Below, in pieces: positions 1 through 32,802 of a stretch of 64,000 nt of DNA. Where the stretch lies: NCBI GenBank assembly GCA_043228905.1, contig JBHGNT010000009.1, positions 18,662,001 to 18,726,000 of the forward strand. Reading direction: 5' to 3'. Both the position numbers and the translations under genes were made by a program. This DNA is from Azolla caroliniana (taxonomy: Eukaryota > Plantae > Polypodiophyta). Every line of letters starts with the position of its first letter. The first letter of the stretch is position 1. The notes under the pieces were generated by a model that was not told the origin of the DNA, searched no databases, and saw only the letters and a program-made list of their open reading frames with translations.

Positions 1-318
1 CTGGATGTAGCTTAGCTCCAAATTTGGCCTTGACGTTGAGGTATTCATGGTGAAAGAACCGTATACACTCGATCGAAGAAATTTTTAGGGCGTTCTCTAA
101 CCAATTGCCTTCTTGCTTCGGCTAAATGTAATCCACCAATAATGAAGTAGTTATACTGATCATGTTTGCAAACATCAAAATCTTCCAATGTCGCACACTC
201 CTCTGGATCAACCATTACAATGAATGGTACTACTATCGCATGATGATTGATCTTCATTTTCTTTTTAAGGTTTTGGACGTGTAACTTATGAAGTTCTCTA
301 ATTTCAAGTGGATGACAT

Positions 319-745
319 TGTTACCCGTAATAATATACGAGCAAGCATAAGGGGTGGAACACGATAATGTGGTTGATGTGTATGTGTAATGTGTGAGGAT
401 GAGTATGTGTATGAACACATGCACATTTGTGTGCATGTGTACAAAAGTGAGAGAGTGGGTAAGTAATGTAACTCCCTACTTGTCCCATTCTTTTGTAATG
501 GTTACCTCTTGTACTATATAAACCCCACCCATGGGGCATAATGTGATATAGCTTTTTCCCCTCTCATTTTTGTGTCATTTCTTATTTTCACTCTCCTTCT
601 CTCTACCTCACACGTAACCCCCTTGGGAGGGGGGTAGAGCCATTCTAGGCTTCACCCCCCACCCATTAACAGACATCTAGTCCTCTCGTCCATCAGTGGT
701 CAGTGGATGTGTGTGATAGGGAGATTAAAAACATGGCCCGTTACG
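319..745. mobile_element. Probable solo LTR inserted in the ParB-like ORF
   Basis: Starts TGTTACCCG and ends CCCGTTAC(G); TATA-like and CT-rich interior. The host frame (DNLEEAS|HPLEIREL) is plausibly restored on removal. TSD is imperfect (GACAT/GACTG). Confidence 0.5.
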
Positions 746-794
746 GACTGGCTTCCTCTAAATTATCTCCCTTCTAATATTATTTTGCTCTGAA

Positions 795-1570: not shown

Positions 1571-2516
1571 CTGAAGACTATACACCAGACGTTAATTCTA
1601 CCCCTAGTATTGTCCGTAGCTGCCCCTAGGATGATGACTTTGACATCTTCGTTACCTTTTTCTTCGATGGCCTCGACTGTGTGGGCCCTTTCTTGGGTGT
1701 TGCCTTCACAAGGGAGGGGGATGGCTCTCTCAATGTGACATGACCTTGAATATATGGTCGCAAAGTCACGATCAAGTTGCTCGTTGTCTCAATTGCTAGC
1801 TTGAAGGCCTTAAGTCCACAAGCTTCTTTAACCAACCTTTCCTCCGAGACAAACATTTTACGTACACCCATAGATGTTTCTATTAATAAAATGAGCTTTT
1901 GCGAATCAGGGTCTTCATAATCCAATCGCAATATGCGACCGTAGAAAAAACGTCGTTCTTTAACTAGTTGGCCATCACGCTTAGCTCGAGCAGTAATAAA
2001 TATAACTTTTTTACTCGAGTCGACGTACTGCATCGCCCACTCGTAATCTGTGAAGTCCTTGTCAGGCAAGTTTTCACCCCCCCACTCCTACCACCACTTT
2101 CTTCTGGGTCACTTCGTTAGAAGGTTGCTGAACCACATCTTCCTTGAACATCAACTTTTTTCCTTTGCCCTGATATGTAACAATGGGCAGCTTTCCAGCA
2201 TCCTTTGGCGAATTTTCATATTTAATTATAATCTTTTTAATTGGACGTTCCTCCTGAAACTCTCTGGACCTAGTGTAAAAGATAAAAAATGAATCAATTA
2301 GTATCAATTTCACAATAAAGATTGATTTTTAACCATGAAGGGAGAAAGTTATGTGGATAGAGCTTTGTGGAAAACAAAAAAGTGTTGAATTTAGGGTATA
2401 AGATATGTAAAATTGTGAACAATTTCTCCTCAAATTTTCGTCAAATCTTGATATATTTTATCAAGTTTGGGTTAGAAATCATCAAATTGTATCGACTTTT
2501 TACCTAAATCAGGGGA

Positions 2517-2771
2517 TTCGATACAATGTATCGAGATGTTACCCAAACTCGATACAATGTATCGGGTTTGTATGCCAACTCAATACAATGTATCGAGTTT
2601 GGGTAGAAAATGCTCTAACTCGATACATTGTATGGAGTTGGTGCCATTTTGGCTCAAACTCGATACAATGTATCGAATTGGTGCCACAACTCATTATAGT
2701 GTATCAAGTCTATGCAACAACTCGATAAATCGTATGAGTTGGTGCCCCAACTCGATACATTGTAACTAGTT
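2517..2771. repeat. Array of ~8 copies of a 23-bp palindrome AACTCGATACAwTGTATCGAGTT
   Basis: Copies start near 2517, 2546, 2577, 2617, 2657, 2688, 2719 and 2749 (period ~30-40 bp); degenerate copies at ~2447-2496. Confidence 0.9.
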
Positions 2772-5346
2772 TGGGCAGTGTTAGGTGAGTATACAATGAT
2801 GAAACGTGTGAGAAAAATATAAAAAAAGAAAATTGTTCGTACAACTCAAGATCCTAACTTGGATTCTGTCCTCTGGGTCTTCCTCGATGACATGGTGGTT
2901 GATTGGGATGGGTGTGGTACACATGCTTGAAATGTTCTAACTGTTGTGGGTATGAATGACTGAGGTGCTCAAGTGCTCTCAGGTTCTCTCTTGTACTCTC
3001 GTAGAGAGAAAATGAAAAGGTCCACCTATTTATAGGGAAGGAAGTAAGTCAGGTTAGTTAGTGGTAACCATAGTTGTAGAAATAATACAAAAAGTACATA
3101 CACATTTAATATTTATAAATAACTATAGTTAGTTATAGATTTTGACCTAAAAGAAGAAACACACTCATGATCTATATTTAATTTGTCTAGACATTAATTG
3201 ATGTTTACTTTTAGATTTTAAATTAGACTTACCTCATTTATGTATACTTCATAGCTATCCTATAATCATTGTATAAATCATTTATAGCAATAAATTCAAG
3301 GTATATCAAATTCTCTACATTCTTTTTTATTTAATTATTAGACTTTAATACTTCCATTTATGATAAAGTCGAATTATTGAATTTAAACACTTTCTTTGTA
3401 GGTAAATTAAATTTCATTGATTTGTTTTTATTTAAGCACACTTATTACTTCTAGATATATTAAATTTTAATTATTGATTATTAAAGATTTATTAAATGTA
3501 TATATCTTTGTTTATTAAAGATTTATTTGCTTAAATAAAAAATTGTGTGGATAGATAGATAGATAGCTTTAGTAACTATTCCTATTTTAGATCTCTTAGT
3601 TTTGAGTAAAGTAGACTACTTTTAAAAAGAACAAGTGCTTTGAGAAATGAGTGAATACTCAATGTCAATAGCCTGCCCCTTTTCTATTGACGAATACAAT
3701 ATGGATTCGAAATGTTGTCAAACACCACGAACTATGGAACTGAGTAATGAGTTCTCAGTTGATGAGTATGACAACAATGAATTTTCTAACCATGATGTCC
3801 AAGCAAAAATAGTTAATGAAGCCATTGACTATCAAGTAAAGACAAATGTTAGTAAGGTGGATGATGATACCAATATATGTAAGGAAGACATAAAGACCGC
3901 TAGTCCAATCCAATTCAGGAGAGTTCCACGACGAATATGGTGAGACCGGTTCAACTTGGTGACATCTTATAAACAACTAACATTAGATGTGTTGAAGTCC
4001 TGTTGTCTCGTGGATGTTTGCCAATGTTGGGGAAAGCTAAATTACGTAAGTTGAAATGCCATTATTTTTCACTCACTGGTGATGAGCAAGACACATGGTG
4101 GTGACACATATGCAAATGGTCTCCTACAAATCTTCCCAAATTTCAGTCTCCTTTGAGTATTACCTAAATGGTACACAACAATGTTGTAGAGTGGCATTTA
4201 AACTTTCTTTATGTGTTATCAATATGAGATTACATAGAGTGCAACAAAGAGTTCTTAATGGTGATATTAGTATCAATGGCAATTACGTTCCAAGTATGAA
4301 AGGAGCAGCCAGAAGAAATGCAAATCTATGGATGAAAAATTACTTTGAGCTCAATTGCGAAGTAATGCCAACTACGTGTCGATTGCATCTCTCAGATAAC
4401 TACACGCGTAGAGAAGTATATGATGCTTACAAATCCGATTTGATGACCTCAAGCGAGAAGTATATCACATATAACCAATTTACAAGAGTGTGGACTACGC
4501 AATTCTCAAACGTTATTGTACCTCGCAAAGTCCGTATGGGTTATTGTTCAATATGTGCAAACTTGAAGAGCATGGCTAAAGGCGCCAAGACAACCAAAGA
4601 AAAAGACAACCATAAAAAATTGTTACAAGAACATTGTGAAGCTCAAGCGTTAGAGCGAAAGAGTGCAATGGTTCATAGAGATAAATCACTGAATAATCCA
4701 GCTCAATAAATGTGTCTAATGATTGATGGCATGGGTAAGAAGAAAATGTGTCTACCACACATGAGGAGACTTCCTAAAGATGTCAATGATGAATGTCTCA
4801 TACAGATGCATGTGGTCGGTTTCTTGGCTTATCATGGGACGATTAAACCCCATGTCTCCATTACATACCCTAACGTCCATAATGACCCCATCCTTACGGT
4901 TACTGTGATTCATAGGGTTTTGATGTGCTGGGGGCTGCCTTTGCCTCCTGTACTCTATATTCAATTGCATAATACTATTAGGGAAAATAAGAATTCAATT
5001 GTTTTTGAATATTTTAGTATGTTGGTGAATCAAGGTGTGTTCAGGAAAATAAAGGTGAATTTCCTTCCAGTTGGTCACACCCATGACCATATTGATCAAA
5101 TGTTTAGTACATTCTCAAGGCAGTTGTCTCCTCATTATGCTTTCACCTTACCTAGGCTGGTTAATATCATATTTGATGCATATACACCACGTCTTATAGT
5201 GGTGCACCTAAAGGAGATTTATGACTTCAAAAGATTCATATCAGATGGTGGAGAGGACAAGTGTAAAGTGTTAGCCCAACTAAATAATATGAGTTTCAAT
5301 CACATTTTCTTAATAAAGAGAAATGATTTAACCAATTCTACATTAT

Positions 5347-5659
5347 TGTTGAGAGATCAAGCTCAACTTAGTTTAGTTAGTTAGTCAACACATGTAACCT
5401 AGTAGTTACCTAGATAGAATCTAGTTAGTGTGTTGACCATAAAGCCTTGAATAAGATTTTGTACTCAAGTGGGATACATTGTAGATCCACCACTCCATGC
5501 TCATTTAATATAGTACTTACACGTTGTACCTATATTCTCCTAGCACATGTGCACCCTTGCACATGAAACCTATATATACCTCATTGAAGGTATTTTTGTA
5601 TTTGATGATGTTTTATAATATACACTCTAGTTTACTCATCCCCCATCTTGTGTTATTCA

Positions 5660-5723
<64 letters not shown>

Positions 5724-5800
5724 ATATCACATAATCTTCCGCGCTTAACTTCGTCACATAATTAGGTACTAATTAACCTTTACCTACCTAATTCTTAACA
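5347..5800. mobile_element. Solo LTR
   Basis: TGTTGAGA...TCTTAACA termini; perfect TSD ATTAT (5342-5346, 5801-5805); contains (CT)n(CA)n. Confidence 0.9.
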
Positions 5801-6372
5801 ATTATTAAATGCAAAGTAGTATTCGTCTTCTCCATGTTCGGAGCTTAAATGTGGTTGTCAATCTTTGCTCCATATGCCATCTGCTACAACTTATGGCGCA
5901 GAACAAATGCCAATTGAGACTAAAAAGGAATTGAATGGTCTATTAGTAGATTAACAAAAGAGTTATTGGATACAAGCCTTAAAAGATAAAAGGAAGCATA
6001 TTGATAATGCAAAGAAGTATGTGGCACAAGAAGATACATCATGGTGGGATGACTTCTTCCTTGATCAAGAAAATATTATTGATAGTTGTGTAGCTAGTAG
6101 TTGGGCTTTAGAACCTCCATTTACATGGTCTATACAACAATTAGTTGGCTCACAAACGTCAGTTCCTGCACCCAATGTCAATCTAGAGAAATTGCTTCAT
6201 CCACAACAAAGAGACATCTACATGGGACCAAGGTTATAAAAAACAGCAAAATCTAGGTGGCAAGGAAATTTACAAGAATTGAAGGTTTGGTATGTTAATT
6301 GCTACTCCTGTAGATGTAAATGACCTCATCCACCAATTCTAGATTGATAAAGTGTTGGATGTGGTGATGCAT

Positions 6373-7102
6373 TGTCGCGGAAATTCACGTGTGTGTATCG
6401 GATAGGACGAGACCACGGGGGTCTTGGACTAGGGAGTAAGAGGAGGGAGAGAAGCTTGGGAGTTCAACCCAGAAGGAAGAGAAAGATTAAGATGCGAGAG
6501 ATTAAGATTCAAGAGAATAAGATCTAAACAAGACAAGATACATTATGGAAAACACCACACCAATTACAATCATGGCCATGTAGGCCGAATGTAAACCCTC
6601 TAGATGAAACCCTAACCGGATAGGGGAAAAGAAGAAGAAGACGATGAATGAAACCCCTAAAACGAGATCCTAAAACCCAAAATTCTGAAACCCTAATGGC
6701 AACCCAAAGAAACCCAAAAGTGGCAGCCCCTCAAAAGTGACCCCTCACTCCCTTTTATAGTAATAAGGGGTGAGGCACATTACAAAAGGGAGTGGTCAAA
6801 TCCCCTTTCTTTCAAAGGAGTGTATTTGACCTCGATCTTAGGAGGTGAGATTGATGGGTCTTAACTCCCTCTCCTCTCACCCACATACTCAATGCCCACT
6901 ACTACCTACACCCATACTTCATGTGCCTCCCTCTAGTCTACAAAGTGCACATCACCTTTATACCTTTACATCTTACTTTTCCTCCTTACATTTGTCTATT
7001 ATTCCTATGTTACAATTTTCCTAAGTTCATGTGCAATGTTGCACATCTTGTTTTATTCCTTTGGCTCGGGTTTTCTCACCATGGCCGAAAATCCTCACGA
7101 CA
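6373..7102. mobile_element. Solo LTR
   Basis: TGTCG...CGACA termini; 4-bp TSD GCAT/GCGT (one CpG transition); transposase frame restored on removal. Confidence 0.8.
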
Positions 7103-7989
7103 GCGTGAAGACCAAAACAAGATTGACACAATAAAGGTGCATTGGTATAACACTAAAAGTAAAAATGCAATTACTAGGAAATATACTTTAGCGATGTTAG
7201 AATGCGCAAGATCAAGGGGTAATAGAAAGCAAAAAAGAAATATCCGAAATACATCACCCTGAACATTAATGAAGTGGATATTATTGTGTATGACTTTACA
7301 TTGACAAAAGTTGGGTGTTTAAGAAAGTCAACTATAGATATAATCCAAGAAAAATTGATTGTTGGTCAAGGTGTCTCTAATCAAAGGAGAACAAGATCAG
7401 CAGCTCATGATTTAGAGTCACACAATATGGTTTTAGATGAAGATAATGATTTGATTGGAATATCTGAAGATGAAAAAGATCAATCACCTTTGTATATTAG
7501 TGATAGTAGCAATGACAACTTGTAATACACTGAGAGACGTATATTTTTGCATATAGATGTAACCAATTCATTTTTGTAAAAACTCGAGTGATATAAAAGT
7601 TATATTTATTTTGATCCATAAACTCCTTCAATTCTTATTGTTCTCTATACCATTAGTTCTCATTTTCCGAACACAAATATGTGATGTTGCTTTTCGAATT
7701 TGTCCCAAATTTACGAATATTTTAAAATGGTGGAATTTTAAACATCTTTTTGAGAATATGTGATACTGGTATCAACGTGTTTTGTGAAGTGGATGTAAAA
7801 ACCACAAAAATTTAGGGAATATATTCCTTATCCTTCCATTCATGCGCGATCCTTCCATTTGTGAACGCACGTGTTGATAGATAAAGAAGAGTTTTTATTA
7901 AAAAACCAGGGATAACCCGATATTACAAAGGTGGTACAAAGATTCATTACATGGAAATCTACTTGTTGTACATAGGTACCAGTGTAAAT

Positions 7990-9060
7990 TGCCAATGAAT
8001 GAATCGCCATGTTGATGTATTGAACTCTTCAATCAGCCAAGTGCACCTTATAGGTGTGATCACTTACGATGGGTTGGACTCCCCATATCTGAGCCAAACG
8101 ATCATTCATAACGTTATGTGAGCTTCTCGAATCAAATAAGAACTATGGTAGAGATCCATTGATATCTCTCGTTTGCACGTAGTAAAACATTAGATCCCAA
8201 TACATAGTGAGGGAAAGAACATTTACAACTACTTTAAGAATCTAACATTTATTATCTGCAACTTTGTTTTTGTTGTCATGCTCTTTGAGTTGGAGCTTCT
8301 GACATTGCTCTTTTGTGTGGCCCCAACTTTTTGTAGAACACGCAAAAAGGATTTTGTCGCTTACAATTGTGATCCAAGAATTCGTTGGGTGTCTTGCATT
8401 TCCTAGAGAATTGCGACCACTTGGTCTCAGGCACTTCAGGTTTGTTATGGTCCTTCTTCGAAGAGCGTTAATAATGAATAACTATTTCAATGGCCTCTTC
8501 AAAGGATGTTGGGTCCTTATCGTGCACTATCAAAATTATGATAGTTTGAATTGGGGATGCCATTGACAAAACAAGCTATTAACCAATTATCACCTTCTAG
8601 ACCCGATTTTTGAATTTGGGTTCTAGTATGGTGAACATAATCTTCTAGCGAGGAAAATTTCCAACTACAGAGGTTCATTAATGCTTATGTTGCCTCGATG
8701 CGAGATGGAGGTTGTAGAAATTGACCCTTGAAAACCTTAACAAAGTCTGTCCAAGTATTTGGCAATTTCCCTGTAGTGTGGAGCCTATGCCACCAAGCAG
8801 CGGCCTTACCCCCTAGTTCTTGAATAACATATGCAATCTTCGTACTATCTCGCTTGGAATAGAGCTCAAAATGAGACTCCCATTTGTGAACCCATGCATA
8901 GATTGCTTCTTCGGCTCTTTCCTTTTTTTCTCCCATAAATGGCTTGACGACAAACAATGATTCACCTTGACATTCATCTGGTTTATTAGTATCACATTGC
9001 ATACTAATGACCCGTGCTTCTAGATCACTATGAGATTGCCGAAGTTCGGAAATCTTGTTC
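7990..9060 (-). pseudogene. Degenerate Ty3/Gypsy gag-protease fragment
   Basis: Retrotrans_gag-like WVHKWESHF...LGGKAAAWW...TWTDFVKVFKGQF; decayed knuckle (GHTKEQC, ~8300-8330); protease-like FLFDSRSSHNVM at ~8110-8145. Confidence 0.7.
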
Positions 9061-10094
9061 AAGGTAGAATTAAGAAAAAAAAATATTTTTAAAAAATACA
9101 ACTCAATTGGGATTGCCCCAAGAGTATTTCCTTGAATTGCCTTCGCTTGGGAGGATGTCATGGGGTCATTAATATGAGTCATAAGAATATAATGTTTGGC
9201 AAAGAAATAAGATAGGGTAAGACAAATAGCCATCACATGATGTCGTGATGTAAACATATCATGAGCAAACATTAATCGATATCATGATCTCACATCTATA
9301 CCCCTGTGGACGTATGAGTTGAGGTTCAAGATCAAGTACCTATGGTAACACAAAGGTGTTTTAAAAACCATGGGGGTGACAAATGAATGTCTTTCCCTGA
9401 TCTCTATATTGGTTTTTATATGGCGGCTCCCCGAGGCTCTTGATCATATTTGATCTCATCATGAAAAATTTATACACGAAAAAATATTAACAATAAACTA
9501 TGTCTCTGTGCCCACCCATGTGGTTTCGGCTCTTTAAGTTCTATTACAAGGACCTTGAAGTGCACTTAAACCTAAAGTCTAAACATGTTTTATAGTTGTA
9601 TGTATCGATAATGTTGTATAGTCTTGGTCATATTTGAACTCGAAACCTCAAGAACAAAGTCATTAAACACTTGAGCTAACCAAATGGCTTGCTCATTTTG
9701 AATGTTTAATGTTTAAGCGTATGAGAGATATGTGAAGGCATGTACATATTTTTTTTAAAAGAAAACATATGTGTCTAGAATACTTATTTCCCCCTCGTTA
9801 ATTAGAAAACTATGTCGGTACGTTACCCAACCTCAAGTCTCATCATTACGATGGTATACCGTAAGGAGAAACCTAATGGTTCAAGCCAACACTAGGCTTT
9901 TTTCCATAGTGGGCCCACGTGGCCCATCACATGGTTACTTCATTACGAATGCCTTTCATAATGATGATCTCATGGTGGCATCGTAATCATGTAACGAGTG
10001 CGGAATTTTGGATGCGTGTTTCATAAGGGCGACCTCTCATGAAGTGGATCAAACCCTTACGCTCACAACATCATTGTGGCTATGCTTGACATTA

Positions 10095-16690: not shown

Positions 16691-19600
16691 TTGCAACTTA
16701 TGAATGGTCTAGAAAACCTTGTATAATGACATGCAACTTGTGAATGCTCCAAAAAACCTGGTATAATGAAATTCAATTTGTTTAGAAGGCCATGCGTTAC
16801 AAGGGGTTTATAGGTCATTTTGGCCTTTTAAAAAACCTAAAGAATCTTTTTTCTTTGTTTAAAGATTCTCTACTCTTTTGGGGAAGAAAGAGTTGTATGT
16901 TACCGGCCGGCAAAGGAGTCCAGAGTGGGAAACGGAGAGCTAATTAAGTAGTAGGAATGTGGTTGTAATTAAGCTATGAGTGTGGACGGACGGACCGGAA
17001 TCGGTATGCCATTCCGGATCCGGACCGATCCCGAACAGGTGCGGATGGCACCGTTTTGTAATATAGACCGGAAACCTATTTAAAGGCCTGGATACAATGT
17101 AATAGTTAGCGGTTAATTAATGAAAGCTTAAGCGTTGTTATATCTCTGTCAATTGCCGTTCTGTCTTAATTGTATATCTTACGCGTGTTATGAAGACGAT
17201 CCTAATAAGTAACTTAACTAAGTCGGATTAAGCGTTGAAGTCTAATCCGGTTGCCGCAACACCCTTTGGTGAAGTGTCTCACGTAGACACCCTGTGTTAG
17301 GCCATTGTCCGGCCCGAAGAGTTAACACAGTTTTTGGCGACCACGATTCCTGTTTTTGCAGCGAACGACGGCACGGATGGATGTCTAGATCAACGCACGA
17401 CCTGGTTACAGATCGAACTCGACGCCTTACCGAAAGGCAAAGGAGACGCGAGGCTTTCCAGCAAGCGGTGCAGGAAATTAGAGCGGATCGCTCGTTTTCC
17501 AACATAATCCGGAGAGTAGCGGAGGACTCCTACTAGTTACAGCAAACATCGCACCCGGACGACGGCAGCAGCCTAAGCAGCCTCCGGGAAACCGAATCCC
17601 TTCTCCACGCGTTGGCAAATGGAAAAGGCGAAGCAGAGGCCTTTTCAGCATATGAATTGGACTCCGAAGGGTAATACAGCGTGCACACGAACTACCGTAG
17701 CAGCAACGAAACCCCGGGCAGACCGGAGGACGAAGGATCAGATACCTTACCGACACCGGAACCGGAACCGGAAGTGCTAACGCTGGAACCCCCGGAACCA
17801 GCAGAAGAAGAACGACCTCCGACACCGGAAGTCGAGGAGGAGAGGCCTCCGTCACCAGCGGAAGAGAAACAACCGACACCGGAATCAAATCGGGAAAGAC
17901 CACTGACATCGGAAAAAATTCCGGAACGAGCACCAACGCTACCAGCCTGCACACCGATACTAGACGACGACATGCCGTTCCAGTACTCCAAGTATAGAGA
18001 TGATCCGGACGCGGAAGCTCATGTGCACGCATTTGAACAGACATGGGAAGCCAACCATGTGTCCCAGCGACTGACACCGGAGGAAGAAGAACGCTCTAAG
18101 ATAGCAGAGTTTGGCGTCACAGTGGAGGGACCGGCAGCAAGATGGCGTCGGACGCAGGACCCGTCTACCATCAACACCTTTGTAGATTTAAAAGCTAAAT
18201 TCATGCATTTCTTTCAAAAGGAGATGGACCAGACCGTAATGGTAGGCTTATTTTATACTATCCGGCAAGAGGCAAGGGAGAGCATTCCCCAATTTGTCAT
18301 CCGGTTTCAACGGATGCACAGTCAGCTTACCCGTGCACCCCCAGAGGAGGAATTACGGACGATATTCCTAAACGCGCTCCGGGAACCCCTACGCACGGTT
18401 TGCACGGTAATCGATTTCCGTACAAGTACCATCGACCAAGTCATTGACCGGGTGAAAGAGATGGAAAAGACAAGCTCCTGGCTCACACTGGGCGCACTTC
18501 AACGGGCGTTACCGTCCGATGAAGACCTCCGGTTTCGGCAAGCAATACAGTGCACAACCTGCTTGAATTCCGGACACTCGGCTCTAGAATGCACTATGAG
18601 GACGCAATGTGTAATCTGTCAGTCCAAGAGCCATACGACGGATAGGTGCGAGTATAATCTGTTGACTCGGCAAGCACCGCCCGTCCGACAAATTGAGCCA
18701 CGCAGCAGCCGGGATGAAGAAGACGAACGCTGGCGGCGAATGGATCGTGACCGACCGGCACAGGATGTCTAGTATGGCGAGCGACGGGAAAATGATGTCC
18801 GATATGGCGAGCGACGGGAAAATGATGTCCGGTACGGTGATCGGCGAGATAACTATGACCGGCATGATCGGCACCAGGATTACAATAGACGATACGAACA
18901 GTACAACCGGGAGCACTCCCCCGGGTATCGTCAGCAACGGGAGGAATACGGCCGATATAACGGGCAACCCCGTCAAGAGTACCGTAATAAGAAGAGCTTT
19001 AACAAAAAACGACATTTTAAAAAAGGCGGCTACCCCCGGGATCCGGAACAAGGCGCTCCAAGTAGCCAACCGGTACAAAACCCCGCGCGTACCGCAGGAC
19101 CTGCCCCGGGTACAACAGACAATGCCGAATCTAGCAATGCCTGGAAAACCTACTGCTACTACTGCAGACAGGAAGGCCATTATAGTAACCAATGCCTGGT
19201 GAAGAGCTATGAAAAACGACCGGCGGTAAATATGGTAGTCCCTGAGGTGGCAGACCTGCAGCAGGTGACCACAAGATCGAAGGGCATGGCCAAAGAATGG
19301 GAGACACAGGAGACCATCCGCAAACAAGCAATGGAATGGGTAAAGAAAGCAAATGAGCAGAATGTCACAGACTTACAGCAGCAAAAGGAGAGCACCGCAG
19401 GGCTTGCCGGCGGTAGTCACTCCGAGAACGAGACATGGCAAGCGTTGCAAGAATGCCAGATTACGTTACCACTAGGAAGACTCCTACAACTCGTGCCTAG
19501 ATTCACGGAAGGACTGAAGACGGCCATGACGGCAGGAGAACCATCACCGGCACCGGTACTCTTCTCGAATCCGGAAGAGGGACCAACAGTGGTAGACACC

Positions 19601-20764
19601 AGCAGTCCGGTAATCACTGCCATTGTAAAAGGGAAAGAACTCCCCGGCACAGTTATAGACGGAGGCTCTGGGGTAAATGTAATAAGCCTCCGGACGTGTG
19701 AGGACCTAGGAATCCACGAGTGGGAGCCGTGTCCGTTCTGGTTGCGGATGGCCGATACAAGCTCAGTGCGGCCGACAGGATTAATACAGAAATTAGAAGT
19801 CACCGTCGGCGGGCATACATTTCACATCTCGGTCGTAGTGCTACAATTACAGGCACAAGGCGCATACCCACTATTGCTGGGGCGGCCATGGTTGAAAACG
19901 GCACATATCAAACAGAATTGGCGAAAAAATATAATTACCTTCCGGCGAGGAAAAGCCAAGGTACGGGTACCAACACAGCCAAGGACGAGCACTGGCAAAG
20001 AATGTACACCGTTGTATGCGGAATGTGTCAACATGCTCGAAGGGTTAGCGGACGAAGAAGAAGCTCAATACCTGCAGGAAAACCCGAAGATCATACCCCT
20101 CTTCGAAATTGACATTGCCGAAGCCGTAGCACCGTACTTACCGCAACCGGAAGAGGCGGAAGCAGAACCGGATAAAGACGCAATCCGGGAGTTACGGCAA
20201 GCGCAGGAAGCGTTGGAAATGGCCGTTTCACAGCGCGTGAAAGCATCGCAATTGGAAGATGTGAATTTAGGCACGAAAGACGAAGCAAAACCGGTGCACA
20301 TCGCCAAGGAGATGAAGTCCGGAGACAAAACGACGATGATAACACTTCTCACGGAATTTCGCGACGTATTCACCTGGTCATATGAAGACATGTGAGGACT
20401 CGACCCTCAGTTATACCAGCATCAAGTGCACTTGAGCAAAGACGCAAAACTAGTGGCACAAAGACGGTACCGAATGAATCCCAATTATGTTGCCAAGGTC
20501 AAGGAAGAAATCGACAAACTGCTAAGAGTTGCCTTTATCCGTCCGGTAAAGAAAGCGACATGGCTGAGCCCGATCGTAGTCGTACCGAAGAAGAACGGAA
20601 AAATTCGAGTTTGAGTGGACTACCGGAAACTCAATGCGGCTACGGTAACGGATGCATTTCCACTTCCGTTCACAGATGGAGTGTTGGATGTCGTCACCGG
20701 CCATGAGGTCTATAGCTTCCTAGACGGATTCAGCGGATATAATCAGATCCGGATGCACCCCGAC

Positions 20765-23700
20765 TGTTGGAAACGAGGTCGTCAATGCGGAAGATCAAGA
20801 AGCATTCGATCCTTGCTGAATACCTGCGTATGACAGTTTCTATGTCGTTGCACAGAGAGAGAGTGAGAGAGAGAGAGACACACAAAAAAACTCTTTATTC
20901 CAAGAGACAAGAATACAACAATCCAACCTCACAAAAAGGTTACAAGGTCACTATATATAGTGACCAACTTAGGGCAACTACCCTTTATGCTAATTACATA
21001 GATGGCCAAAACGGGATAGCGTGAATACGTCCATTATACACATGTATTCGACACTCCCCCGTAATGGGCGTGTACATGGGTTATCTAAGATTACAGGTAT
21101 AGACTTGGGTTCTCGGACACATCCGCTTTGTTCGAGTCGGCAGGGTCCGAAGGCAGAAGACCGAACTGGTCGGGTCGGAGCAGTTGAAGCCGATCATTAA
21201 GGAACTGATGTCGGTTGTCGGGAACCATCCTGCTCTGTGTCCGGCTCTAACCGGATTGGTTTGTCGTTACGCCCATCTGATGCCGAAGAGACCGAAAACG
21301 GTCTGTCGAAAGACACTTGGTCATTCCATCTGCGACATTGTCGGTTGTGGATATTTTCTCTAGACCGATTTTCCCTGAAATGACGCAGTCCCGAACGAAG
21401 TGATATCGAACGTCGATATGTTTGGAGGCGTTGTGGTGAACCGGATTTTTCGACAAGGCAACAGCACCTTGACTGTCGCTGTAGACAACTGGAGCCGAGT
21501 CATGGTCGACTTGTCGAAACGTGTGCGCCAGCCGACCGAGCCACAAAGCTTCTTTTGCTGCGTCGGACGCAGCTACATATTCTGCTTCGGTCGTTGAGGT
21601 CGCTGTGCACTCCTGAAGTTTCGACTTCCACGAGATTGCTCCATTGCCGAATTTGAATCAGTATCCGGTTGTTGATTTCCGACTGTCTATACAGCCGGCG
21701 AAATCCGAGTCGGTGTAACCGACTACGCCTGAGGTTCGGTTCGGACCGAAAAGAATGCCATGGTCTTTTGTGCCAGCCAGATATCTGAACACATGCTTGA
21801 CTGCGTTCCAATGCGATCGGCCAGGATTGTGCATAAATCTGCTAACGACTCCTACGGCATGAGAAATATCAGGCCGTGTCGCGACCATCAGGTACATAAG
21901 GGAGCCGACTGCCGGTGCATACGGTACCGACTTCATATCTTCCCCCTCCGGGCCGGATGTCGGGCAGTCTCGCTGAGAGAGCCGAAGATTCATTGGGAGC
22001 GGGGTTGAAGCAGATTTGGCTGATTGCATGTTGAAGCGTTCCAAGACACGTCCGATATAGTCGGTCTGAGACAAAAAGAGATGTCGTTTATCGCGATGCC
22101 GACTAATTTTCATGCCAAGGATGTGTCGTGCCGGACCGAGGTCCTTCATGGCAAACTTCAACCGCAGTTGCCGAACGAGATCGGCAAGTTCGCCCGCGTG
22201 GCGTCCAGAAATTAGCATGTCGTCCACGTAAATGATGAGGAAGATGGGTGATCCATCTTGAGCTGTGTTGGTGAAGAGACAATGGTCCTCATCGCTTTTT
22301 GAGAAGCCGATCGATTGGATGAAGTCGTCGAACTTCTTGTACCATTGTCGCGGTGCCTGTTTGAGGCCGTATAGACTCTTCCTGAGTCGGCAGACTAGAT
22401 GTTCTTGGCCAGGTGCCACGAAGCCTTTTGGCTGCTCCATATAAATTTCTTCCTCGAGATCACCATGGAGGAAGGCTGTTTTGACATCTAGCTGAATCAG
22501 CTCCAAGTTGTCGGCTGCCACTACGCCGAGTAGAAAACGAAGGGTTGTCATTTTCACCACTGGTGAAAAAATCTCGTCGAAGTCGACGCCATATTCTTGT
22601 CGGAAGCCCTTCGCAACTAATCTGGCCTTGTACTTTGGGGTGGTCGAATCAGACGTCTCTTTTAGTCGATAAACCCACTTGCAAGGAAGAGCACGTCAGT
22701 TCCTAGGTAATTCGACTAGATCCCAAGTCTTGTTTGCTCGAATGGAGTGCATTTCCGACTCCATCGCCAGATGCCAGGTGGCGGAATCGACAGATGTCGA
22801 TGCTTCGTCGTAAGACGTCGGTTCGCCGGCGTCGGTGAAGAAGATTCCAGGAGAGTACCTCTCCGGAGGTTGCGACAGTCTCTCGGATCGTCGAGGTATG
22901 ATTGGACTGGTCGCATCGGGTATCGAGGTCGGATGGTCCGAAAGCGGATTGTTCTGCTGTGCCGAGTCGGAGTTGTCCGAGTCGGTAGTGTAAGGTTCAG
23001 CTACCCGTGAAGCTGACCGTGTGTTGAGAGCGGGGCCTTCTTGAAGGGTCGGCACATCGGAAAATGTTACCCTTCGGACTTCGATCGGTTTTTCGACTGA
23101 TGGATTCATAGCCGACTCGTTGAACACAACGTCCGAACTTCGAACGATTTGCCTGCGTTCGGGGTCCCAGAGTCGGTATCCCATTTCGCCGTCGGATCCA
23201 TATCCAAGGAAAATGCATTTCCTGGACCGAGGTGCAAGTTTTCGGCGATCATCTTTCGGAATAAGGGCGTATGCCTCGCATCCGAAGATCCTCAGCTTGT
23301 CGTAATTCGGCTTACTGCCGATCCATAGTTCCTGAGGAATTTGAAGTCCGAGAGGTCTACTTGGCGACATATTGATTATGTGTACTGCCGTGAGTAGAGC
23401 CTCTGCCCAGAAGCCATCCGACAGTCCGGAGTGTTGGAGCATGGAAACTATCCGTTCTTGGATTGTCCGATTCATGCGTTCGGCAATCCCGTTTTGCTCC
23501 GGACTGTGTGGTGCCGTAAATTCACGTCGAATGCCGCGTTGTCGGCAGAATTTGACGAATTCTTCGGATTTGAACTCTCCCCCATTGTCTGTCCGAAGGC
23601 ATTTCAGCTTTCGGTCGGTTTGATTTTCTACCATGGCGAGCCAATCGGTGAAGATCGGGAAGACCCGATCTTTGGTGCGAATTGGATAAGCCCACACCTT

Positions 23701-26209
23701 TCGAGTCGAATCGTCAATAAAACTGACGAAGTAAGAGGCACCGCCGAGAGACTGATGTGGCATTGGGCCACAGACGTCCGAGTGGACCAAATCGAGAGAT
23801 CTCGTTTCTCTTGGTGCTGATGTCGGGTGTGATGCGGCTGCTTGTTTGCCATACTGGCAATGCTCGCAGAATTGATGGTCGGAGAAGGAGAGTTTGGGGA
23901 TGTATCCGGCTCTAGATAGGTGCGTGATGCCGGCCTTGCTGAGGTGTCCTAATCTTCGGTGCCATAGTGATGACACAGGAATATCCACCAAAAACAGGTT
24001 ACCCTCTCTGAGCGTAACATGTAACGGATACAGTGAGTGTATCTTGGGTCCTCTAGCAAGCAGGAGGTTCCCCCTGTGGAGTGTCCACCCTCCCGAAGAA
24101 AAACCGGCACGAATGCCGTCTTCATCTAGTTGTCCGACTGAGATCAATGGCCTTGAGAGCTCGGGTACATGTCGGACATTGTGGAGTACAAGTGTAGAGC
24201 CACCTGCAAGGTTGAGCTCTACTGTGCCGATTCCGATGATGTCACAGTGTTGTGAGTTGCCGACTCGAACTGAGTCGGAGTGACGGATCGTATATTGCCG
24301 AAATTGGGATCGATGAGGAGTCACGTGAAATGACGCGCCCGAATCTAAGAGCCATGTGCTCGATTCTTCAGTCGTGAGTAGAACTTCTGATCCGACTGGA
24401 TTTTCGATTGATAGTATATTCGGGTCGTCCGGTAGTACATCAGCTGAGAAGCTGACGTAATTGATCTCCTCATGCCGGCCACTCTTCTTGTCGGATCTCT
24501 GAGACTTGTCGTTCTTGTTCTTGAGTGCGCGGCAGTCGGCTTTGATGTGTCCGGGTTTCTTGCAATAGTTGCAGATTCGGTTATCCCGTGACTGGCTCCG
24601 TCTTCGCTGATTGTTCGGCGGTCGTGAGGAATCTCTTCCTCGTATGTTCGATCGGTCTGTCGAACCTTGTACTACGTAAGCGTCGTCTGTTGAGTCTTTG
24701 GCAAAAGACTTTCTCCGAGCTGCTTCGGTCAGAATTGCGCTCGTGACTTCGGAGTATTTGACAGCCGTGGTTGACGCGTTGCACACAGTTGTGACGAAAG
24801 TTTCCCATGATGAGGGAAGGCTACTCATGAGTATCATTGCTCTGAGTTCATCCTCGATTGCCGTCCCCTGAGATGAGATTTGGGAGCTTATACTTTCGTA
24901 CTCATTGAGATGTGCTTGGACCGAATCGGATTCTTTCATCCGCAAGTTGTAGAGGCGCCGGATCAGAAACATCTTCGTTGCAGCGACCTTCTTTTCGTAA
25001 GTGTCCGACAGTGTTTTCCACAGTTTGAATGCTGTCGTACACGATTGCACCGTAAAATATACCGATTCCGATAGGTGCATCCGAATCGTGGCGCGGACGA
25101 TTCTGTCCAGCTTCTGCCACTCAATTGGTTTGTATCCTTCTGGAGGTTCTTCATTTTCGATGGGATCGATTTGCCCCTTGACTATGAGATAGTCCTGCAT
25201 TTGCTCCTTCCAGAAGTTGAAGTTCGATCCATCGAACTTTCGTAGACTCATTTCCGACGAGCCGGATGTTGATGCCATCAAATTTGGTTTCGGTTGACGG
25301 AGCTCGGTTCGGAGTTGACTACGAACCTTGTTGGAGTGCAGCCGGTTGGCTCACCCGATATCGTTCTAGTTGGATTTGAACCCGAGTCGGTTCGGCTTCG
25401 GAACTTGCTCGAATTGACTTCGGTAGCTTGAGGGACAGAACCGACTGGTCTTCCCGAATGTTGCCGAATACCGATTATTGAAACCGATTATCTGGACCGA
25501 TTCTGCTTCGGTTGACTGCAGCAACGAGAGAGACGGATCCAACTGATCCTCCCGAATGTCGATCAGCCAGATGAAGCACGAATTTGGGGTTGTTGTTTTA
25601 AGACCGATCTGCACCGAGTGGTTACAACGAGCAGCGAGCAGCGTTTAATGACCTTTTCGGATGCCGTTTAACCGAATGGAGCACGATCGTGTCAATGATG
25701 CACAAGGGGATTTCACCTCGAGCGGTTACGATCACAAGGAACAGAGTACAACCTGATGGCTTACTCCAAGCAAGATGATCTAACGCGATGAGATGCAAAC
25801 CTGGTTTTTTTTTTTTTCCTTCTTCTTCTCTCTTCTTCGAATGACGCAGGAAACCGAATGCAGAGACGACGGCCGACAGCGGATTGAAGGACCGACTACT
25901 GTGCAGGCTCTGATACCAGATGTTGGAAACGAGGTCGTCAATGCGGAAGATCAAGAAGCATTCGATCCTTGCTGAATACCTGCGTATGACAGTTTCTATG
26001 TCGTTGCACAGAGAGAGAGTGAGAGAGAGAGAGAGACACAAAAAAACTCTTTATTCCAAGAGACAAGAATACAACAATCCAACCTCACAAAAAGGTTACA
26101 AGGTCACTATATATAGTGACCAACTTAGGGCAACTACCCTTTATGCTAATTACATAGATGGCCAAAACGGGATAGTGTGAATACGTCCATTATACACATG
26201 TATTCGACA
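20765..26209 (-). mobile_element. Full-length Ty1/Copia LTR retrotransposon nested in the Gypsy RT
   Basis: 289-bp LTRs 20765-21053 and 25921-26209 differ at ~2 positions; TSD CCGAC (20760-20764, 26210-26214); PBS TGGTATCAGAGC (iMet) at ~25907-25918 on -; PPT GGGGGAG next to the left LTR. Confidence 0.97.
21247..25281 (-). pseudogene. Copia gag-pol (gag, CCHC, PR, INT, RT, RNase H) with two in-frame TGA stops
   Basis: CNYCKKPGHIKADC, WLLDSGAS, HRRLGH...CEHC, RTDNGGE, YVDDML, KHIDVRYHF. Stops at 22696-22698 and 21658-21660; the frame continues through both. Confidence 0.95.
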
Positions 26210-28815
26210 CCGACGACCAAGAGAAAACGGCATTCGTCACCGAATGGGGGGTGTTTGTGGCCGTGGTGATGATGTTCGGACTCAAAACAGCACCGGCAAC
26301 GTTTCAAAGAATCATCATGGAAATCTTTGGTGAATATATACCGGCTTTTATGCAGGTTTTCCTTGACGATTTCGCCGTCTATAGCCGGGAGGAGGACCAT
26401 TTTCAGCATCTCCGTCTTTGTCTAGAAAAGTGTAGAGCGTACCGGCTAAGCTTGAATCCGGCAAAGTGTGTATTTGGCGTGTCCAGTGGAACTTTATTAG
26501 GACATATCGTAAGCCAGGAAGGTATAGCAGTCGACCCGGACAAAGTGAAAGCCATATTAGAAGCACCGGCGCCGGCGCTGGCAAAGGCATTGAGCCGGTT
26601 CTTAGGCCAGATCCGGTGGCACAGCCGGATGCTCCGATACTTGGCCGACCTGGCTACACCGTTGCATGCCGCCGTACATCGGACACCATTCCAGTGGACC
26701 GATACTGAGGATAGGGCGTATAAGGCCCTCAAGGTACTATTATCGCAGGCACCGGTAGTACAACCTCCGGATTGGAGTAAAGAATTTCACGTGTTCGTGG
26801 ACGCCTCCGACATCGCAATCGGGAGCGTACTGATGCAGCTTACGGAACCAAAGTGGTACCGGCCAGTGTACTATGCCAGCCGGAAGCTATCCCAAGCAGA
26901 ACGGAACTACTCTACTACGGAACAGGAAGCTCTAGGAATGATCTACAGTGTGACAAAGTTTCGGCACTATTTATTGGGAAGGAAGTTTTCCTTCCATGTA
27001 GATCATTCAGCACTCCTTTACCTGGTGTCCAAGGCGTCACTCACCGGCAAATTGGCCCGGTGGACCTTACTATTACAGGAGTTCGAGTTTGAAATATTCC
27101 ACCGACCCGGTATACAGCATGCCGTAGCGGATTACTTAAGCCGATTGGAGTTCGGAGAGACGGGTGACGGAGTACTGGATGAGTTTCCGGATGCGGAGCT
27201 GTTTCAAGTCACTACGGAGACGGTAGCAGATGAGACAGTGGCCCAGGAAGACAAGGAACTGATACTGAGGGAAGCCCACTGCGGAGTTGCCGGAGGTCAC
27301 TATGCCGGAGATGTGACAGCCAGAAAAATATGGCAAAGTGGCCTATGGTGGCCAACGACATTAAGAGATGCGGTACGGTACGCAAAAGAATGTGACCTAT
27401 GCCAGAGAATGGGCCAGCCAACGGAGCAGGCTCGTATGCCACACCAGCCGGTACTACCACTCGAACCATTCCAAAAGTGGGGGCTGGACTTTGTAGGACC
27501 GTTCAAGCCACCGGCAATGAGAACGGGTAATCGGTACGTTATCATTGCTACGGATTACTGCACGAAATGGGTGGAGGCCAAAGCTTTACGGGATAACACC
27601 GCTGCGTTAACGGCAAAGTTTCTATATGAGTACATCTGGTGCCGTTACGGATGCCCCATTGAATTGATAAGTGACCAAGGGGGGCACTTTCTCGGACAAG
27701 TGGTGGAAAGCCTAACGACCTTCTATGCCGTGGTCCACAAACGAAGCACACCTTACTATCCACAGGCGAACGGATTAGCGGAATCAACAAACAAGACGCT
27801 CCAGAACATCCTTCGGAAGATCGTCAACGAGAACCGGACGGATTGGGACACAAAGCTACATAACGCGCTTTGGGCATACCGGACGGCATACAAAACGAGC
27901 ATCCGAACAACACCGTTCCGGTTGGCGTTCGGACTCGAGGCAGTCATGCCGGTAGAATTTCAAGTACCTAGCTTACGGATTCAGCTACGAGAACGGCTGA
28001 ACGAGAAGGAGTCGGAGACAATAAGGTTGATAGCCCTGTGTGAGCTGGAGGAACAACGGTTGGCCAGCATCCTACATTTAGAATTAGAGCAACGGCGACG
28101 GAAAGAATTCGTCGACCGGCACAGGAAAGGTAACGAAAAAATGTTCGCAATTGGCAAACCAGTGCTAGTATTCCAAACCCGGATGGGCAAGATGCCGGGT
28201 AAACTAAGGTTTAGATGGACCGGACCATATTGGCTAACACGGGAGTATAATGGGTCCTACCAGTTGGGGACACTTGCCGGCGAAGTGCTGGGCAAATGGG
28301 TGAATGGATTCCGGTTAAAGGCATATAGAGGACCGATGCCTAAGAACCCGTTTGAGCAAAGGACTGACGGCAACCACGAAGACGGTAACCGGAGAGAATG
28401 TGGCCGGTAAGGGTCCGGGAGGACCAACGGACATATGACGTCACACTAATAATAATAATAACTGAAAAAAAAAAAAAAAAAAACAATCATGCAAAAGCGA
28501 GGAATGAATGGATGAAAGAGCGTGGAGCGAAAAGGTACGTAGTGGGCATTTAAAGTGCCACCACAGGACATAATGCTATTTTAAGTACGCGACATGCACA
28601 AACTCGAAAAAGGCGCCAGAATGCACAGACAAAAACCATTGCGCGTAGAGACCCTCTATTTTCGCGAACCCAGGAGCACAGAAGCACCGAAACGCTGCAA
28701 GATTATCAAAAGAGAACCTGCGCACAGAGAACCCCCGCCTTCTTAACTCTCTCTTTCTCAACCCCGCTCTCATCACCATCCATCCTCGCCACCGCAGTCC
28801 AACCCCAACATAGAA

Positions 28816-31590
28816 ATGGACCCGCAAACGCTGTCGGAAGCCGCCAAGACATGGCTGAAGCAACACGGGCTCGAGGGCTTCCTGATGATGATGGAAGTAC
28901 CGCCACACAAAGAAGCCGACAAAGTGATCAAGGAAATCGATACAGAGGTCATAACGGCAGAGGCGATTCGAGCGTTAACAGGCCTTCCGGAGGGAGGCAT
29001 ACTCACGATCGACAATCCAACCCCGGAGCAACTCATCAGGTATTTTGGTGAGTACTCTCTAGCCAGCAAGGGCTACCGGACACAGAGCGGCAGAGATATG
29101 TTGTTCCGCGAAATTGCTCGTGTGCTCCATGAATACGGCCACGTATACCCTAGACCCCCTGTCATGCCGCAGAACCGGGCAGGGATGATCATCGCCACCT
29201 ATGAAGGCATCAAGGTGGATTGGCCGGTATTGATTGCAGACGGGTTGTGTGCGGCGATCGAGATCGTCAGAGGCAAAGACGGCAAAGAAGGCCGAGACAG
29301 ACGAAGGATATGGCACGCCGTAACGCAGTGGCTCACCCTGCTGGTGCCACCCGTTCAGACCGTCCAGCCCAAGAAGCGAGGAAGAGTGTCGGACGGCACC
29401 CCAAGGACGGCTTCCAAACGGCAGCAGTTGTTGGCCTCTAAGGCCAGTAAGGGAAAGGCAGTGGATGCAGACCAGGCGGCAGCAAGAAGTGGCAGCCGGA
29501 AGCGCCCAACGGAGGTGCAGGAGGAACCACCGACACGACCCGTAAAGGTCACACTCCGCCGACCGGTGAATCGAGAAGTGGACCCCTTGGCGGCAAAACT
29601 CAATGTCGGAGCTCAGGAGGAGGAAATAGAGGAGGAGCCTACGGAGCACCTCCAGCGACGGTCGTCGGCAAGGACCGTTGAGACAGCCGGGAAACGTTCG
29701 GACCCTCAGACGGAGGGAACACTGGCTCCCCATACCGAGACTCCTACGCCAAGGAAGGAACCGGAACCGGTGCAGAAGGAACCGGAAACAGAAGCCCCGG
29801 CACCACCGGCAACACCGGCAAGTCCCATTCCGCCAAAGCCGGAAAGGTCACTACAGCCTCCCTCGGTCAGCCAAGAAGAAGCGCAAGGGGACCAAGGACA
29901 GCAGGATGGTCCACGGGCAGAAACGGAACTACAACTCGGCGCAACCAGGCGGGACCACCCCTCTACAAGTGAGCCCATCTATCAAACCTCCATGCAAGCA
30001 CAACAAGGCACTGGTAGCCTGTGGCTCCGGTGGATAGGCGAACAGATAGCCGGAGCAGTGGGGTATATAGAGGCGGAAGAAAGAGCGCAAAGCGAACGGT
30101 TGCTCGTCACAACCGAACAACTAGAGACGGCCCGGTCCAGAATCCGGTGCCTTGAAAAAGATTTGGATCAGGTCACGACAGAGATGGCTAAAATACGGAT
30201 CCAATCACCGGTGACTCCGGTAAGTGTACAGAATAATGAAACGGAACGACCTGCACATAGGAATAAGACCCCGGCAACGGAAACCGTTCCGGCGAGAGAT
30301 GCGGCGCAAGCTCGGGAGCTTGCAGAATTGAGAGAGGAACTTGCCGCACAAGAAGCACTAAGGAGCCGTGAACGAGAATTGAAGACGGTGGCCGAAGCCG
30401 AATTAAAGAAGACTGCTAAGAACCTCCGCCGGGCAGAGGAGAGCCTCCGAAAAGGCCATCAAGCGTACGACCGGCTAAAGGAGGAGAAAGAAAAAGTGCT
30501 GCAGGAAAAGGACAAGCTGCGGAAAACGGCGGAAACAGAGATAGAACGGCTAAAGGAAGAGCTCCGCCAACAGAAGGACCGCGAGGACCGGGCCCGTCGT
30601 CAGATCAACGCACGGCTCAAGCAAAAGACGGATGATTTTGAGCACCTGCACCGGGACTACAAACGGCTAGAAATAGAGCATAAAGAATGGATGGCCGAGC
30701 TCCAGCAGGCAGTTGATCGGGCCGCAACGGCGATCGCCGACGAACGGGCGGAAAATACAAGACGCTTGGAAGAGGTGGAGAAGGTCCGGATGGAGCTCCA
30801 GAAGCAGCAGCAGGAAGACAAAGAGAGAGCGTCTACAATATTGCAGAAATTACAAAGTACATATCAAAGGCAACTGACGCATTACAAGGCGCAGGCGGAG
30901 GACAACGTAAAAATCATCAAACAACTGAAGGAGGAACGGCAAGCGACAGAAACCAAATCGCAATTGGGAACGAGCCGGATTCAGTCCATCCTCCGGGCAT
31001 GGCTGAATCAGACGAAGCACTTGATTGATGAAAGCTCCGTAAAATGGTGGACAAAGTGAGCACAAAACGCGGCGGAACTCCAGTTGATACGGGCGGATGT
31101 GGCAAACCGGCGGAAGGAAGGAGATGACTGTTATACGCTATCTTCCGAGGACTTCACCGCCATACGGGACGAGCTGGCCGACGACTTCCAAGTCCTAGCA
31201 GATGAACAGCTGGCGCAGGTCAGACAGCTCGTAGCTCAGCTGGACGATGATAGGCTGGACGCTCAAATCCAGTTTGAAAGCTACGAGCGGTCCCGGGTAC
31301 GGGAAGAAAAAGGGCAGGAAGCGACAACGGTTAACCTTAGTGATGAGGAACCGTCGTCGGCTGAGGGCTAGCCGGGAACCAGTCAACCGGAGACCGCCAC
31401 GACGCAGGGAGCAACGACGGAGACGCCGGTGTCAGAGCCACAAACGGAGGAGCAGCCGCAGCAACCACCAACGGACCCGCCGCAGCAGACAGCAACAGAG
31501 CAGCAACAACAACAACAACAACAACCACTTCCAAATGAACCATTGGAGCCTCTCGAACAGAGCATTCTGGACATTTTGGACGAAGAATAG
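28816..31590 (+). pseudogene. Gypsy extra ORF downstream of pol (~924 codons; globular N-terminus, Pro/Glu-rich linker, long coiled coil, poly-Q tail)
   Basis: The 747-aa ORF continues in the same frame through stops at 31057-31059 and 31369-31371 to TAG 31588-31590, ending ~55 bp before the 3' LTR. Confidence 0.8.
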
Positions 31591-32802
31591 CAAGGGTCGT
31601 TTGTGGATTCGACGTACAAGGTATTGTTCCACGGGCGTGCCATGTGTTACCGGCCGGCAAAGGAGTCCAGAGTGGGAAACGGAGAGCTAATTAAGTAGTA
31701 GGAATGTGGTTGTAATTAAGCTATGAGTGTGGACGAACGGACTGGAATCGGTATGCCGTTCCGGATCCGGACCGATCCCGAACAGGTGCGGATGGCACCG
31801 TTTTGTAATACAGACCGGAAACCTATTTAAAGGCCCGGATACAATGTAATAGTTAGCGGTTAATTAATGAAAGCTTAAGCGTTGTTATATCTATGTCAAT
31901 TGTCATTCTATCTTAATTGTATATCTTACGCATGTTATGAAGACGATCCTAATAAGTAACTTAACTAAGTCGGCCCAAATTCTACTTACAAGAGAGATCC
32001 ATTTAAACATTGAAACACACATTTTGCAAAAAGTTTGTATCCTCTTGTATAAGACAAGTCATCTATGTGTTTAAATTGTGTTGGCTACAATTTTGCAATT
32101 CCATGGTGTGTAGATATAAAGATAAGACATATGGTACTTCTCAATCCCTCTCTTAAATGAAGGTAGAATAATAAACACCTCTTCACCTTTTGGAGGTATA
32201 TTATTACTCTTAGTTACCAAAAATCAAGAGGTGATAAATTGTAGGGCCTCCATGTTCGATGGTTTATCACGCCTTCAAACTAAAATATCATTTATTACTT
32301 AATTCTTTCTTTCTCTTGGCTCTATTCCATACATGTATGATAGTTATTATCACATGAACATAAGATTGTTACTGATATTTCATCGCAAGTTAATGTAGAA
32401 AGCCATCTACAACAAACCGTTTAGCACAATTATATTTGGATTTGTGTATGTAGTGGTTCATCCCCAATCAACCTATGTAGATTATAAATAGCTAGTAACT
32501 ACATAGACTCTCTCAATATTGTGAAAGAGTAGAAAGTTGTCCCAATATTCTTTAACATTATAATAGAATGATTGATACATAAAACGAAATCTACAATTTT
32601 GTATCGCACGAAATGAACTATTACCATAAGAAATGCAATATGCATAAATAACTAAAGATGGTAGGAAAGTATAGACATCGTATTAGGTTATTTAAAGCTG
32701 TTGGAGAAGACTTATATTATAGTGTTGGAAGTTGGAACACACTTTTCTCGATCATTGTTCTTGTCGAAAAGCTCCTCTTGTGATGTTGCTTCATCAATGC
32801 AA

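Follow-up and report, generated by a model that had tools for sequence, protein, structure and literature searches.

The window analysed here is a single stretch of 64,000 nucleotides from Azolla caroliniana. It contains a dead copy of a transposon of about 9 kb with terminal inverted repeats (TIRs), a 4-bp target-site duplication (TSD) and a DUF7869 transposase, Sola1-like in type. Membership of Sola1 is likely, as judged by features and published descriptions. The intact element shows two genes only: a 927-aa DUF7869 transposase (E 1.8e-51) stands head-to-head with a spliced ParB-methyltransferase gene encoded on the opposite strand. A row of palindromes occupies the predicted first intron of the latter. 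In the window copy (table 1) both genes are broken; a leftward search of 60 kb failed to recover the left half, the methyltransferase exons or the left TIR. The tetranucleotide beyond the right TIR is probably the TSD, its partner end being missing. At a distance of about 12 kb to the left of the window there is a piece of exon 2 from a younger copy, in inverted orientation (L089:7127-8092).

Table 1. Features of the transposon copy in the window.
Feature	Position	Strand	Remarks
TATA-like box of ParB-methyltransferase gene	3027..3035	-	similar box 5' of exon 1 in other lineages
Predicted exon 1	2859..2893	-	11 codons plus 2 nt, basic peptide; sequence prediction
Predicted intron 1	2270..2858	-	phase-2, GT-AG, 589 nt, contains the array; in-frame join
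Variant of conserved TGTACGGAC motif	2835..2843	-	just within intron 1
Palindrome array	2445..2771	.	ten 23-bp dyads of AACTCGATAC-AWT-GTATCGAGTT type, spaced 30-31 or 39-40 bp
Exon 2, 5' part	1628..2269	-	N-terminal beta-rich domain; frameshifted
Exon 2, stranded piece	676..794	-	flanked on both sides by unrelated insertions (about 318-675 and 795-1627)
Exon 2, ParB core (GGxHxAEARRQL)	2..311	-	internal deletion; ends 43 bp left of the window
DUF7869 transposase	3647..7468	+	head-to-head with ParB gene; stops, frameshifts, two insertions (about 5361-5801 and 6373-7106)
Right terminal inverted repeat	7842..7875	-	followed by GATA

The array is a real, constrained feature. A sequence-only reading of the window had described 23-bp palindromes at this place, and six units match its 23-mer with at most three mismatches, against none expected from 100 shuffles. 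Ten units are present once decayed ones are admitted (up to eight mismatches tolerated), with starts at 2445, 2476, 2515, 2546, 2577, 2617, 2657, 2688, 2719 and 2749, and successive unit-to-unit gaps of 31, 39, 31, 31, 40, 40, 31, 31 and 30 bp. The same reading held the dyads to be better conserved than the linkers, in agreement with mean pairwise identities of 83% among seven window units versus 38-53% for linkers. It gave the linkers as variable, of about 8-17 bp; the lengths stand, but they take two discrete values, about 8 or about 17 bp, without continuous variation. Its division of the unit into 11-bp arms and a 1-nt centre has to be abandoned, as the unit conserved across lineages consists of two 10-bp arms around a variable 3-nt centre. 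Its placement of the array in an intron is upheld: predicted exons 1 and 2 join in frame over the GT-AG intron that holds the dyads, although splicing itself is a prediction. The length and phase of exon 1 recur in nine of 13 other copies by automatic search, and in the intact copy L093 by eye. Shortly 3' of the intron 1 donor, 11 of the 17 loci tested carry an exact copy of the TGTACGGAC motif. Its reverse complement resembles the site of SBP/SPL transcription factors, and the motif, found in intron 1 of the window copy and of other lineages, is a possible host-control input.

Linkage between array and transposon was established from both directions. The array query matched about 40 places in the 523-Mb genome, all of which were fetched with up to 10 kb each; the sample comprises 39 array loci (one a duplicate contig) and the left flank of the window. 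Pieces of element genes lie within the fetched 10 kb at 34 of the 39 loci (at L041 the piece is 4.3 kb off), and a TIR or element flank at three more, which places 37 of 39 in element sequence. The exceptions are two short arrays (L045 and L065) with no element context or just a 66-bp match. Exact dyads number 2,757 in the genome, versus 0 for a reversed control, and all 11 dyad clusters among the first 50 of these sites lie inside the element. These counts rule out a free satellite or MITE, the outcome that would have contradicted the sequence-only reading, and support its assignment of the palindrome to this transposon family at a fixed place.

The family itself is large, with 1,392 genome matches for the TIR and at least 150 for the ParB exon. 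TIRs of about 35 bp and 4-bp TSDs bound the element. A matching TSD was found for seven of ten young copies (the other three have one end out of view) and for six older copies; the seven young copies with both TIRs and matching TSDs are 8.9-9.3 kb long. Approached from the ParB exon, ten of ten young copies (chosen from 150 exon matches) carry arrays. Approached from the TIR, units are present in 30 of 40 loci (drawn from among the first 100 TIR matches) and in 17 of the 18 elements with both ends in view. Nine of the ten TIR-picked loci without units are fetched stretches that stop short of the array position. The tenth, L210, is a complete element with matching TSD that has lost its array. 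Absence of the array from other copies, which would also have told against the earlier reading, is thus contradicted by both series. A search by transposase for DUF7869 elements that lack the ParB gene gave 76 matches at 40-41% identity to the query, most with the element's 927-aa frame.

Two non-autonomous groups also carry the dyads. The first consists of six copies with common deletion ends, a sample biased by its discovery through the array. The second consists of ten TIR-picked copies of 1.4-5 kb without the ParB exon (L196, L197, L198, L203, L206, L211, L220, L225, L229 and L230), which hold 6-16 scattered units at gaps that are often out of phase. Copies of this second group show an internal inverted duplication, and some young-type dyads lie within fresh tandem duplications. 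Tandemly repeated element ends were seen at L218:101-444, L230:101-1070 and L062:3242-3700, with spacings of 154 bp, 407 bp and about 212 bp. At L121:5270-5670 a second array, with the arm type of another clade, lies 3' of the gene and probably derives from a nested element.

The product of the array-bearing gene, in intact copies, is a ParB-fold domain fused to a beta-class amino-methyltransferase, a fusion that the sequence-only reading missed. The exon 2 region was modelled with a pLDDT of 81, and the model has the ParB/Srx N-terminal fold. Foldseek returned ParB-CDP as best match (E 6.9e-6), followed by Noc. Structural alignment matched PadC (VIA Z 9.1, rmsd 3.3, 99 residues aligned) and, over both domains, pNOB8 ParB (VIA Z 8.4, rmsd 4.6, 210 aligned); KorB is also among the matches. 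The earlier description of the neighbouring gene as ParB-like is borne out by these structural matches. Pfam profiles detected no ParB domain in the exon 2 protein, and an Atlas search placed unnamed eukaryotic clusters first, with a ParB_N cluster (35% of members) at rank 20. The helical part that follows the N-domain aligns to pNOB8 ParB, KorB and Spo0J at rmsd 4.6-14. Residues R279, G334, H336 and N378 are conserved in the ParB region. The CTP-binding motif of ParB proteins is GxxRxxA. The element reads GGSHSAEA here: the arginine position is S in 46, T in 8 and C in 5 of 67 rows, and arginine occurs at that place in 0 of the 40 motif variants listed. With this residue replaced, CTP-driven sliding is doubtful. 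The protein is predicted to form a homodimer by way of its ParB domains (0.47 versus 0.00 for the best control, at least 57% of contacts shared between runs, pLDDT at least 73). This score clears a mark attained by 17 of 29 solved eukaryotic homodimers and by none of 30 monomers; the pass may reflect memory, since ParB dimers have already been solved. The intact element, with its two genes, encodes no ParA ATPase partner.

The later exons carry DIPYG and then LDLFSGTG, and PF01555 scores above cut-off. A DPPY-like motif thus precedes FxGxG, as in beta-class amino-methyltransferases. The catalytic motif is DIPY, not DPPY, and DIPYG is present in 43 of 44 matches. Among nearer lineages the methyltransferase exons are 85-97% conserved versus 72-75% for exon 2. 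The full-length homolog P0055 was folded as a stand-in for the spliced product and matched N6-adenine enzymes of the beta class best and N4-cytosine enzymes next. This comparison, made on the homolog, shows the fold and motif order of CcrM, M.BceJIV, M.RsrI and bdelloid N4CMT, from which the Azolla protein differs in its DIPY motif. Annotated homologs of the ParB region occur in Chara, Riccia, Adiantum, Ceratopteris and Ginkgo, several with a methylase domain in the same chain, and in Riccia one fused gene of this kind and a DUF7869 gene bear consecutive locus tags. Relatives of the ParB-like domain also appear in Saccoglossus and among unnamed clusters of sponge, mollusc, cnidarian and DUF3723 fungal origin (P0121, Atlas). 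The N-terminal beta domain (residues 63-185 of L093:5390-7018) folds confidently. It has no match in the Atlas, and its best structural match is the SANTA domain of M18BP1 (Z 6.1, rmsd 4.8, 102 aligned; PH folds reach about 4), a likeness that is a lead only.

Constraint on the dyads was assessed by comparing lineages, through 80 metagenome loci of related elements, all from one assembly series. Across these lineages the arms change symmetrically around CGATRC-N3-GYATCG, and the linkers turn over. Symmetric arm variants of different clades include AACTCGATAC, AATTCGATAC, AAGTCGATGC, AGGTCGATAC and AATCCGATGC, and were recovered also by a motif-free palindrome scan; the arm covariation between families that the sequence-only reading called for is therefore present. 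The core and the 3-nt centre are retained even between clades that share only about 55% identity in their exon-2 proteins. Flipping units and long RNA stems mean that hairpin-driven correction of arms could produce such mirrored changes without selection. Arm types track protein clades, which fits co-evolution and shared descent alike. Arrays hold 2 to 24 units, and unit orientation flips.

Spacing follows the turn of the DNA helix, a regularity that the sequence-only reading missed. At the first loci 260 of 345 gaps of up to 130 bp are 31, 32, 40 or 41 bp, and young copies add gaps of 51 or 52 bp. Across lineages the spacings are 31, 41, 51 or 62 bp, a period of about 10.4; 401 of 459 gaps of 24-70 bp measure 31-32, 40-41, 50-52 or 61-63 bp, part of the 62-bp class being gaps that skip degenerate units. 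With linkers collapsed to 107 types, a step that reduces relatedness and does not abolish it, the best period is 10.3-10.6, and 0 of 20,000 jitter or uniform simulations match the phase score. Each main clade holds several spacing classes, and centre type is decoupled from spacing class (tree of 47 rows, each with 300 or more aligned columns and three or more units). In young copies CG and CHG transitions run at about six times the A/T rate. Changes at arm CGs (27/764, 3.5%) compare with 407/8327 (4.9%) elsewhere and 51/764 at centre CGs, in copies that are not independent. CG and CHG decay resembles that of ordinary silenced repeats, with arm CGs slightly lower, and gives no indication that the array is lastingly shielded from 5mC.

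Taken together, the symmetry of the dyads, their fixed core, their helical phasing and their position inside a ParB-fold gene mark the array as probable DNA sites of a dimeric protein. The simplest candidate, to judge from the sequences, is the element's own ParB-methylase. We give a probability of roughly 0.55 to the reading that the array is a phased row of binding sites whereby a ParB-methyltransferase dimer methylates the element's own promoter region. The proposed mechanism is as follows. (i) The putative helix-turn-helix region of the dimer would read the CGATRC half-sites, a step for which the odds are fairly good, close to two in three. (ii) Phasing would align several dimers along a single side of the helix, allowing cooperative loading or looping in a region 200-900 bp from two divergent promoters. 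(iii) The fused methyltransferase would thereby be delivered to the divergent promoter region and mark the element, probably on N6-adenine. (iv) The methyl mark would favour expression or transposition of the element, and gene-less copies would be served in trans. Granted binding, marking with these consequences is slightly favoured, autorepression of the ParB-methylase gene being the main alternative outcome. Copies without the ParB exon do retain the palindromes.

That alternative outcome has a stricter form, in which the ParB protein binds the array solely as an autorepressor or roadblock, in the manner of KorB or Noc, while the methyltransferase lacks activity or works at other sites. In its favour, the gene has its own TATA box about 230-350 bp upstream of the sites, both KorB and Noc figure among the structural matches, the DIPY motif is non-canonical and there is no sign that the array is protected from 5mC decay. 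We nevertheless consider it improbable, as the methyltransferase exons are strongly conserved with both motifs nearly invariant, and gene-less copies keep sites from which autorepression would bring them nothing. Retention in the two non-autonomous groups is also consistent with a different ligand: the dyads might be internal sites for the transposase, as enhancer or end-pairing bridge, or for a host factor. The start of the TIR shares, by eye, six of ten letters with the half-site. The TIR remains AACACGTT, however, where the arms are AATTCGATAC (L122, L128 and L172), L210, for all its matching TSD, lacks units, and the array of autonomous copies always sits in the ParB-gene intron. The red-algal precedent, moreover, pairs arrays and a ParB gene with an unrelated transposase (bioRxiv 10.1101/2025.02.11.637652, from the part of the preprint available). 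Sites for such a factor thus seem no less doubtful than strict autorepression.

The remaining readings dispense with a bound protein. In one, the intron RNA forms stems that are diced to small RNAs regulating the element, or the DNA forms cruciforms. The array is intronic and its predicted folds are highly stable, with z -13 for the window array and z -33 for young arrays, in which near-perfect RNA stems reach 60-100 bp. Weak matches to Rfam hairpin models exist, but they are spread over many families and none comes near its gathering threshold, the best scoring 42 bits against 140. Hairpins require neither a fixed CGATRC core nor 10.4-bp phasing, and units also lie scattered in the non-autonomous family without the ParB exon; a hairpin source is accordingly an unlikely explanation. 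Least probable is a neutral minisatellite, enlarged by inverted duplication and carried along passively in the intron. The range of 2 to 24 units, their flips and the ordinary CpG decay would suit it. Phasing already strains it, as linkers are replaced and their lengths jump in 10-bp steps, while core and 3-nt centre are kept across clades at about 55% protein identity.

Several known systems resemble the proposed one in part. The sequence-only reading drew an analogy with parS. Its basis in a ParB fold and a palindromic array stands, and the likeness extends to ParB, Noc and KorB in the order of ParB N-domain and helical domain, the predicted dimer and the repeated palindromic sites. ParA and the GxxR arginine are absent, which rules out membership of parABS; the element further differs in its fused methyltransferase and 23-bp dyad, and no segregation role is evident. 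In gene content the element matches Sola1-1_Ec32 of the brown alga Ectocarpus, which in the available text carries a ParB-like and N4C/N6A methyltransferase gene encoded opposite to its transposase, lists Sola1-1_PPa_tp as its best transposase match and is proposed by its authors to bind and modify itself (PMC12477816). TIRs, a 4-bp TSD, AAC- termini and the opposed ParB-methyltransferase gene are shared, according to that description. Sola1-1_Ec32 is 21.5 kb long versus about 9 kb, and the string 'palindrom' is absent from its main text.

The sequence-only reading rated the combination of ParB-like gene, palindromic array and transposase as the most novel system of the window. The combination holds, but ParB genes with inverted-repeat arrays in eukaryotic transposons have already been published for red algae. 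In Plavaka elements of Bostrychia, the ParB-domain accessory gene PAG3 adjoins tandem inverted-repeat arrays proposed as binding sites; phasing and covariation are absent from the portion of that account available (bioRxiv 10.1101/2025.02.11.637652). PAG3, as described there, goes with an EnSpm/Plavaka transposase; its ParB domain is fused to a 2OG oxygenase, and the methylase is encoded by a gene of its own. The methyltransferase fusion and DUF7869 transposase of the Azolla element rule out membership of this group. The VANDAL elements of Arabidopsis likewise encode a second protein, VANC, whose tandem targets, in introns or elsewhere in non-coding sequence, vary from family to family, as the dyads of our element do between lineages. 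The binding of VANC is proven, its motifs are non-palindromic and 8-9 bp long, and the protein removes 5mC (PMC5735166, in the sections available). Both transposase and protein differ from ours, and membership of VANDAL is ruled out by the DUF7869 transposase, 4-bp TSD and ParB-methylase in place of Mutator and a VANC-type protein. Phage ParB-methylase loci are also on record (PMC4738411, as far as its available text goes). The accessible parts of preprints on DAM retrotransposons (10.64898/2026.05.21.726589) and on 4mC in Marchantia (10.1101/2021.02.12.428880) mention no ParB, nor in the former case Sola.

The land-plant family is therefore a variant of a design already proposed for algae. 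Among the papers listed by the literature searches, none describes, to judge by title or abstract, the array or gene in land plants, or the phasing; subscription journals, Repbase and bioRxiv supplements may contain such an account. The family provides a candidate operator whose core is defined, a rule for its spacing, naturally occurring variants matched to their cognate proteins and dozens of ORF-bearing copies, which makes the proposal directly testable. If it is true, a land plant harbours a transposon-encoded, sequence-targeted DNA mark other than 5mC, and a second, independent form of VANC-like self-regulation. A wider picture can be put forward tentatively, at less than even odds. Seed-free land plants would carry a recently active transposon family with a complete self-addressed epigenetic writer, in which cooperative ParB-fold dimers on phased operators write 6mA or 4mC on their own element. 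Operator and protein would diverge by lineage, and gene-less copies would collect operators and borrow the enzyme.

Elsewhere in the window, a Ty3 gag-like ORF occupies 8688-9281 on the minus strand. The stretch from 17000 to 32000 is GC-rich (about 0.5), with a CpG observed/expected ratio of 1.08. It sits among repeats recurring at 14.9-16.8 kb and 32.9-37.7 kb, and is perhaps a young retroelement.
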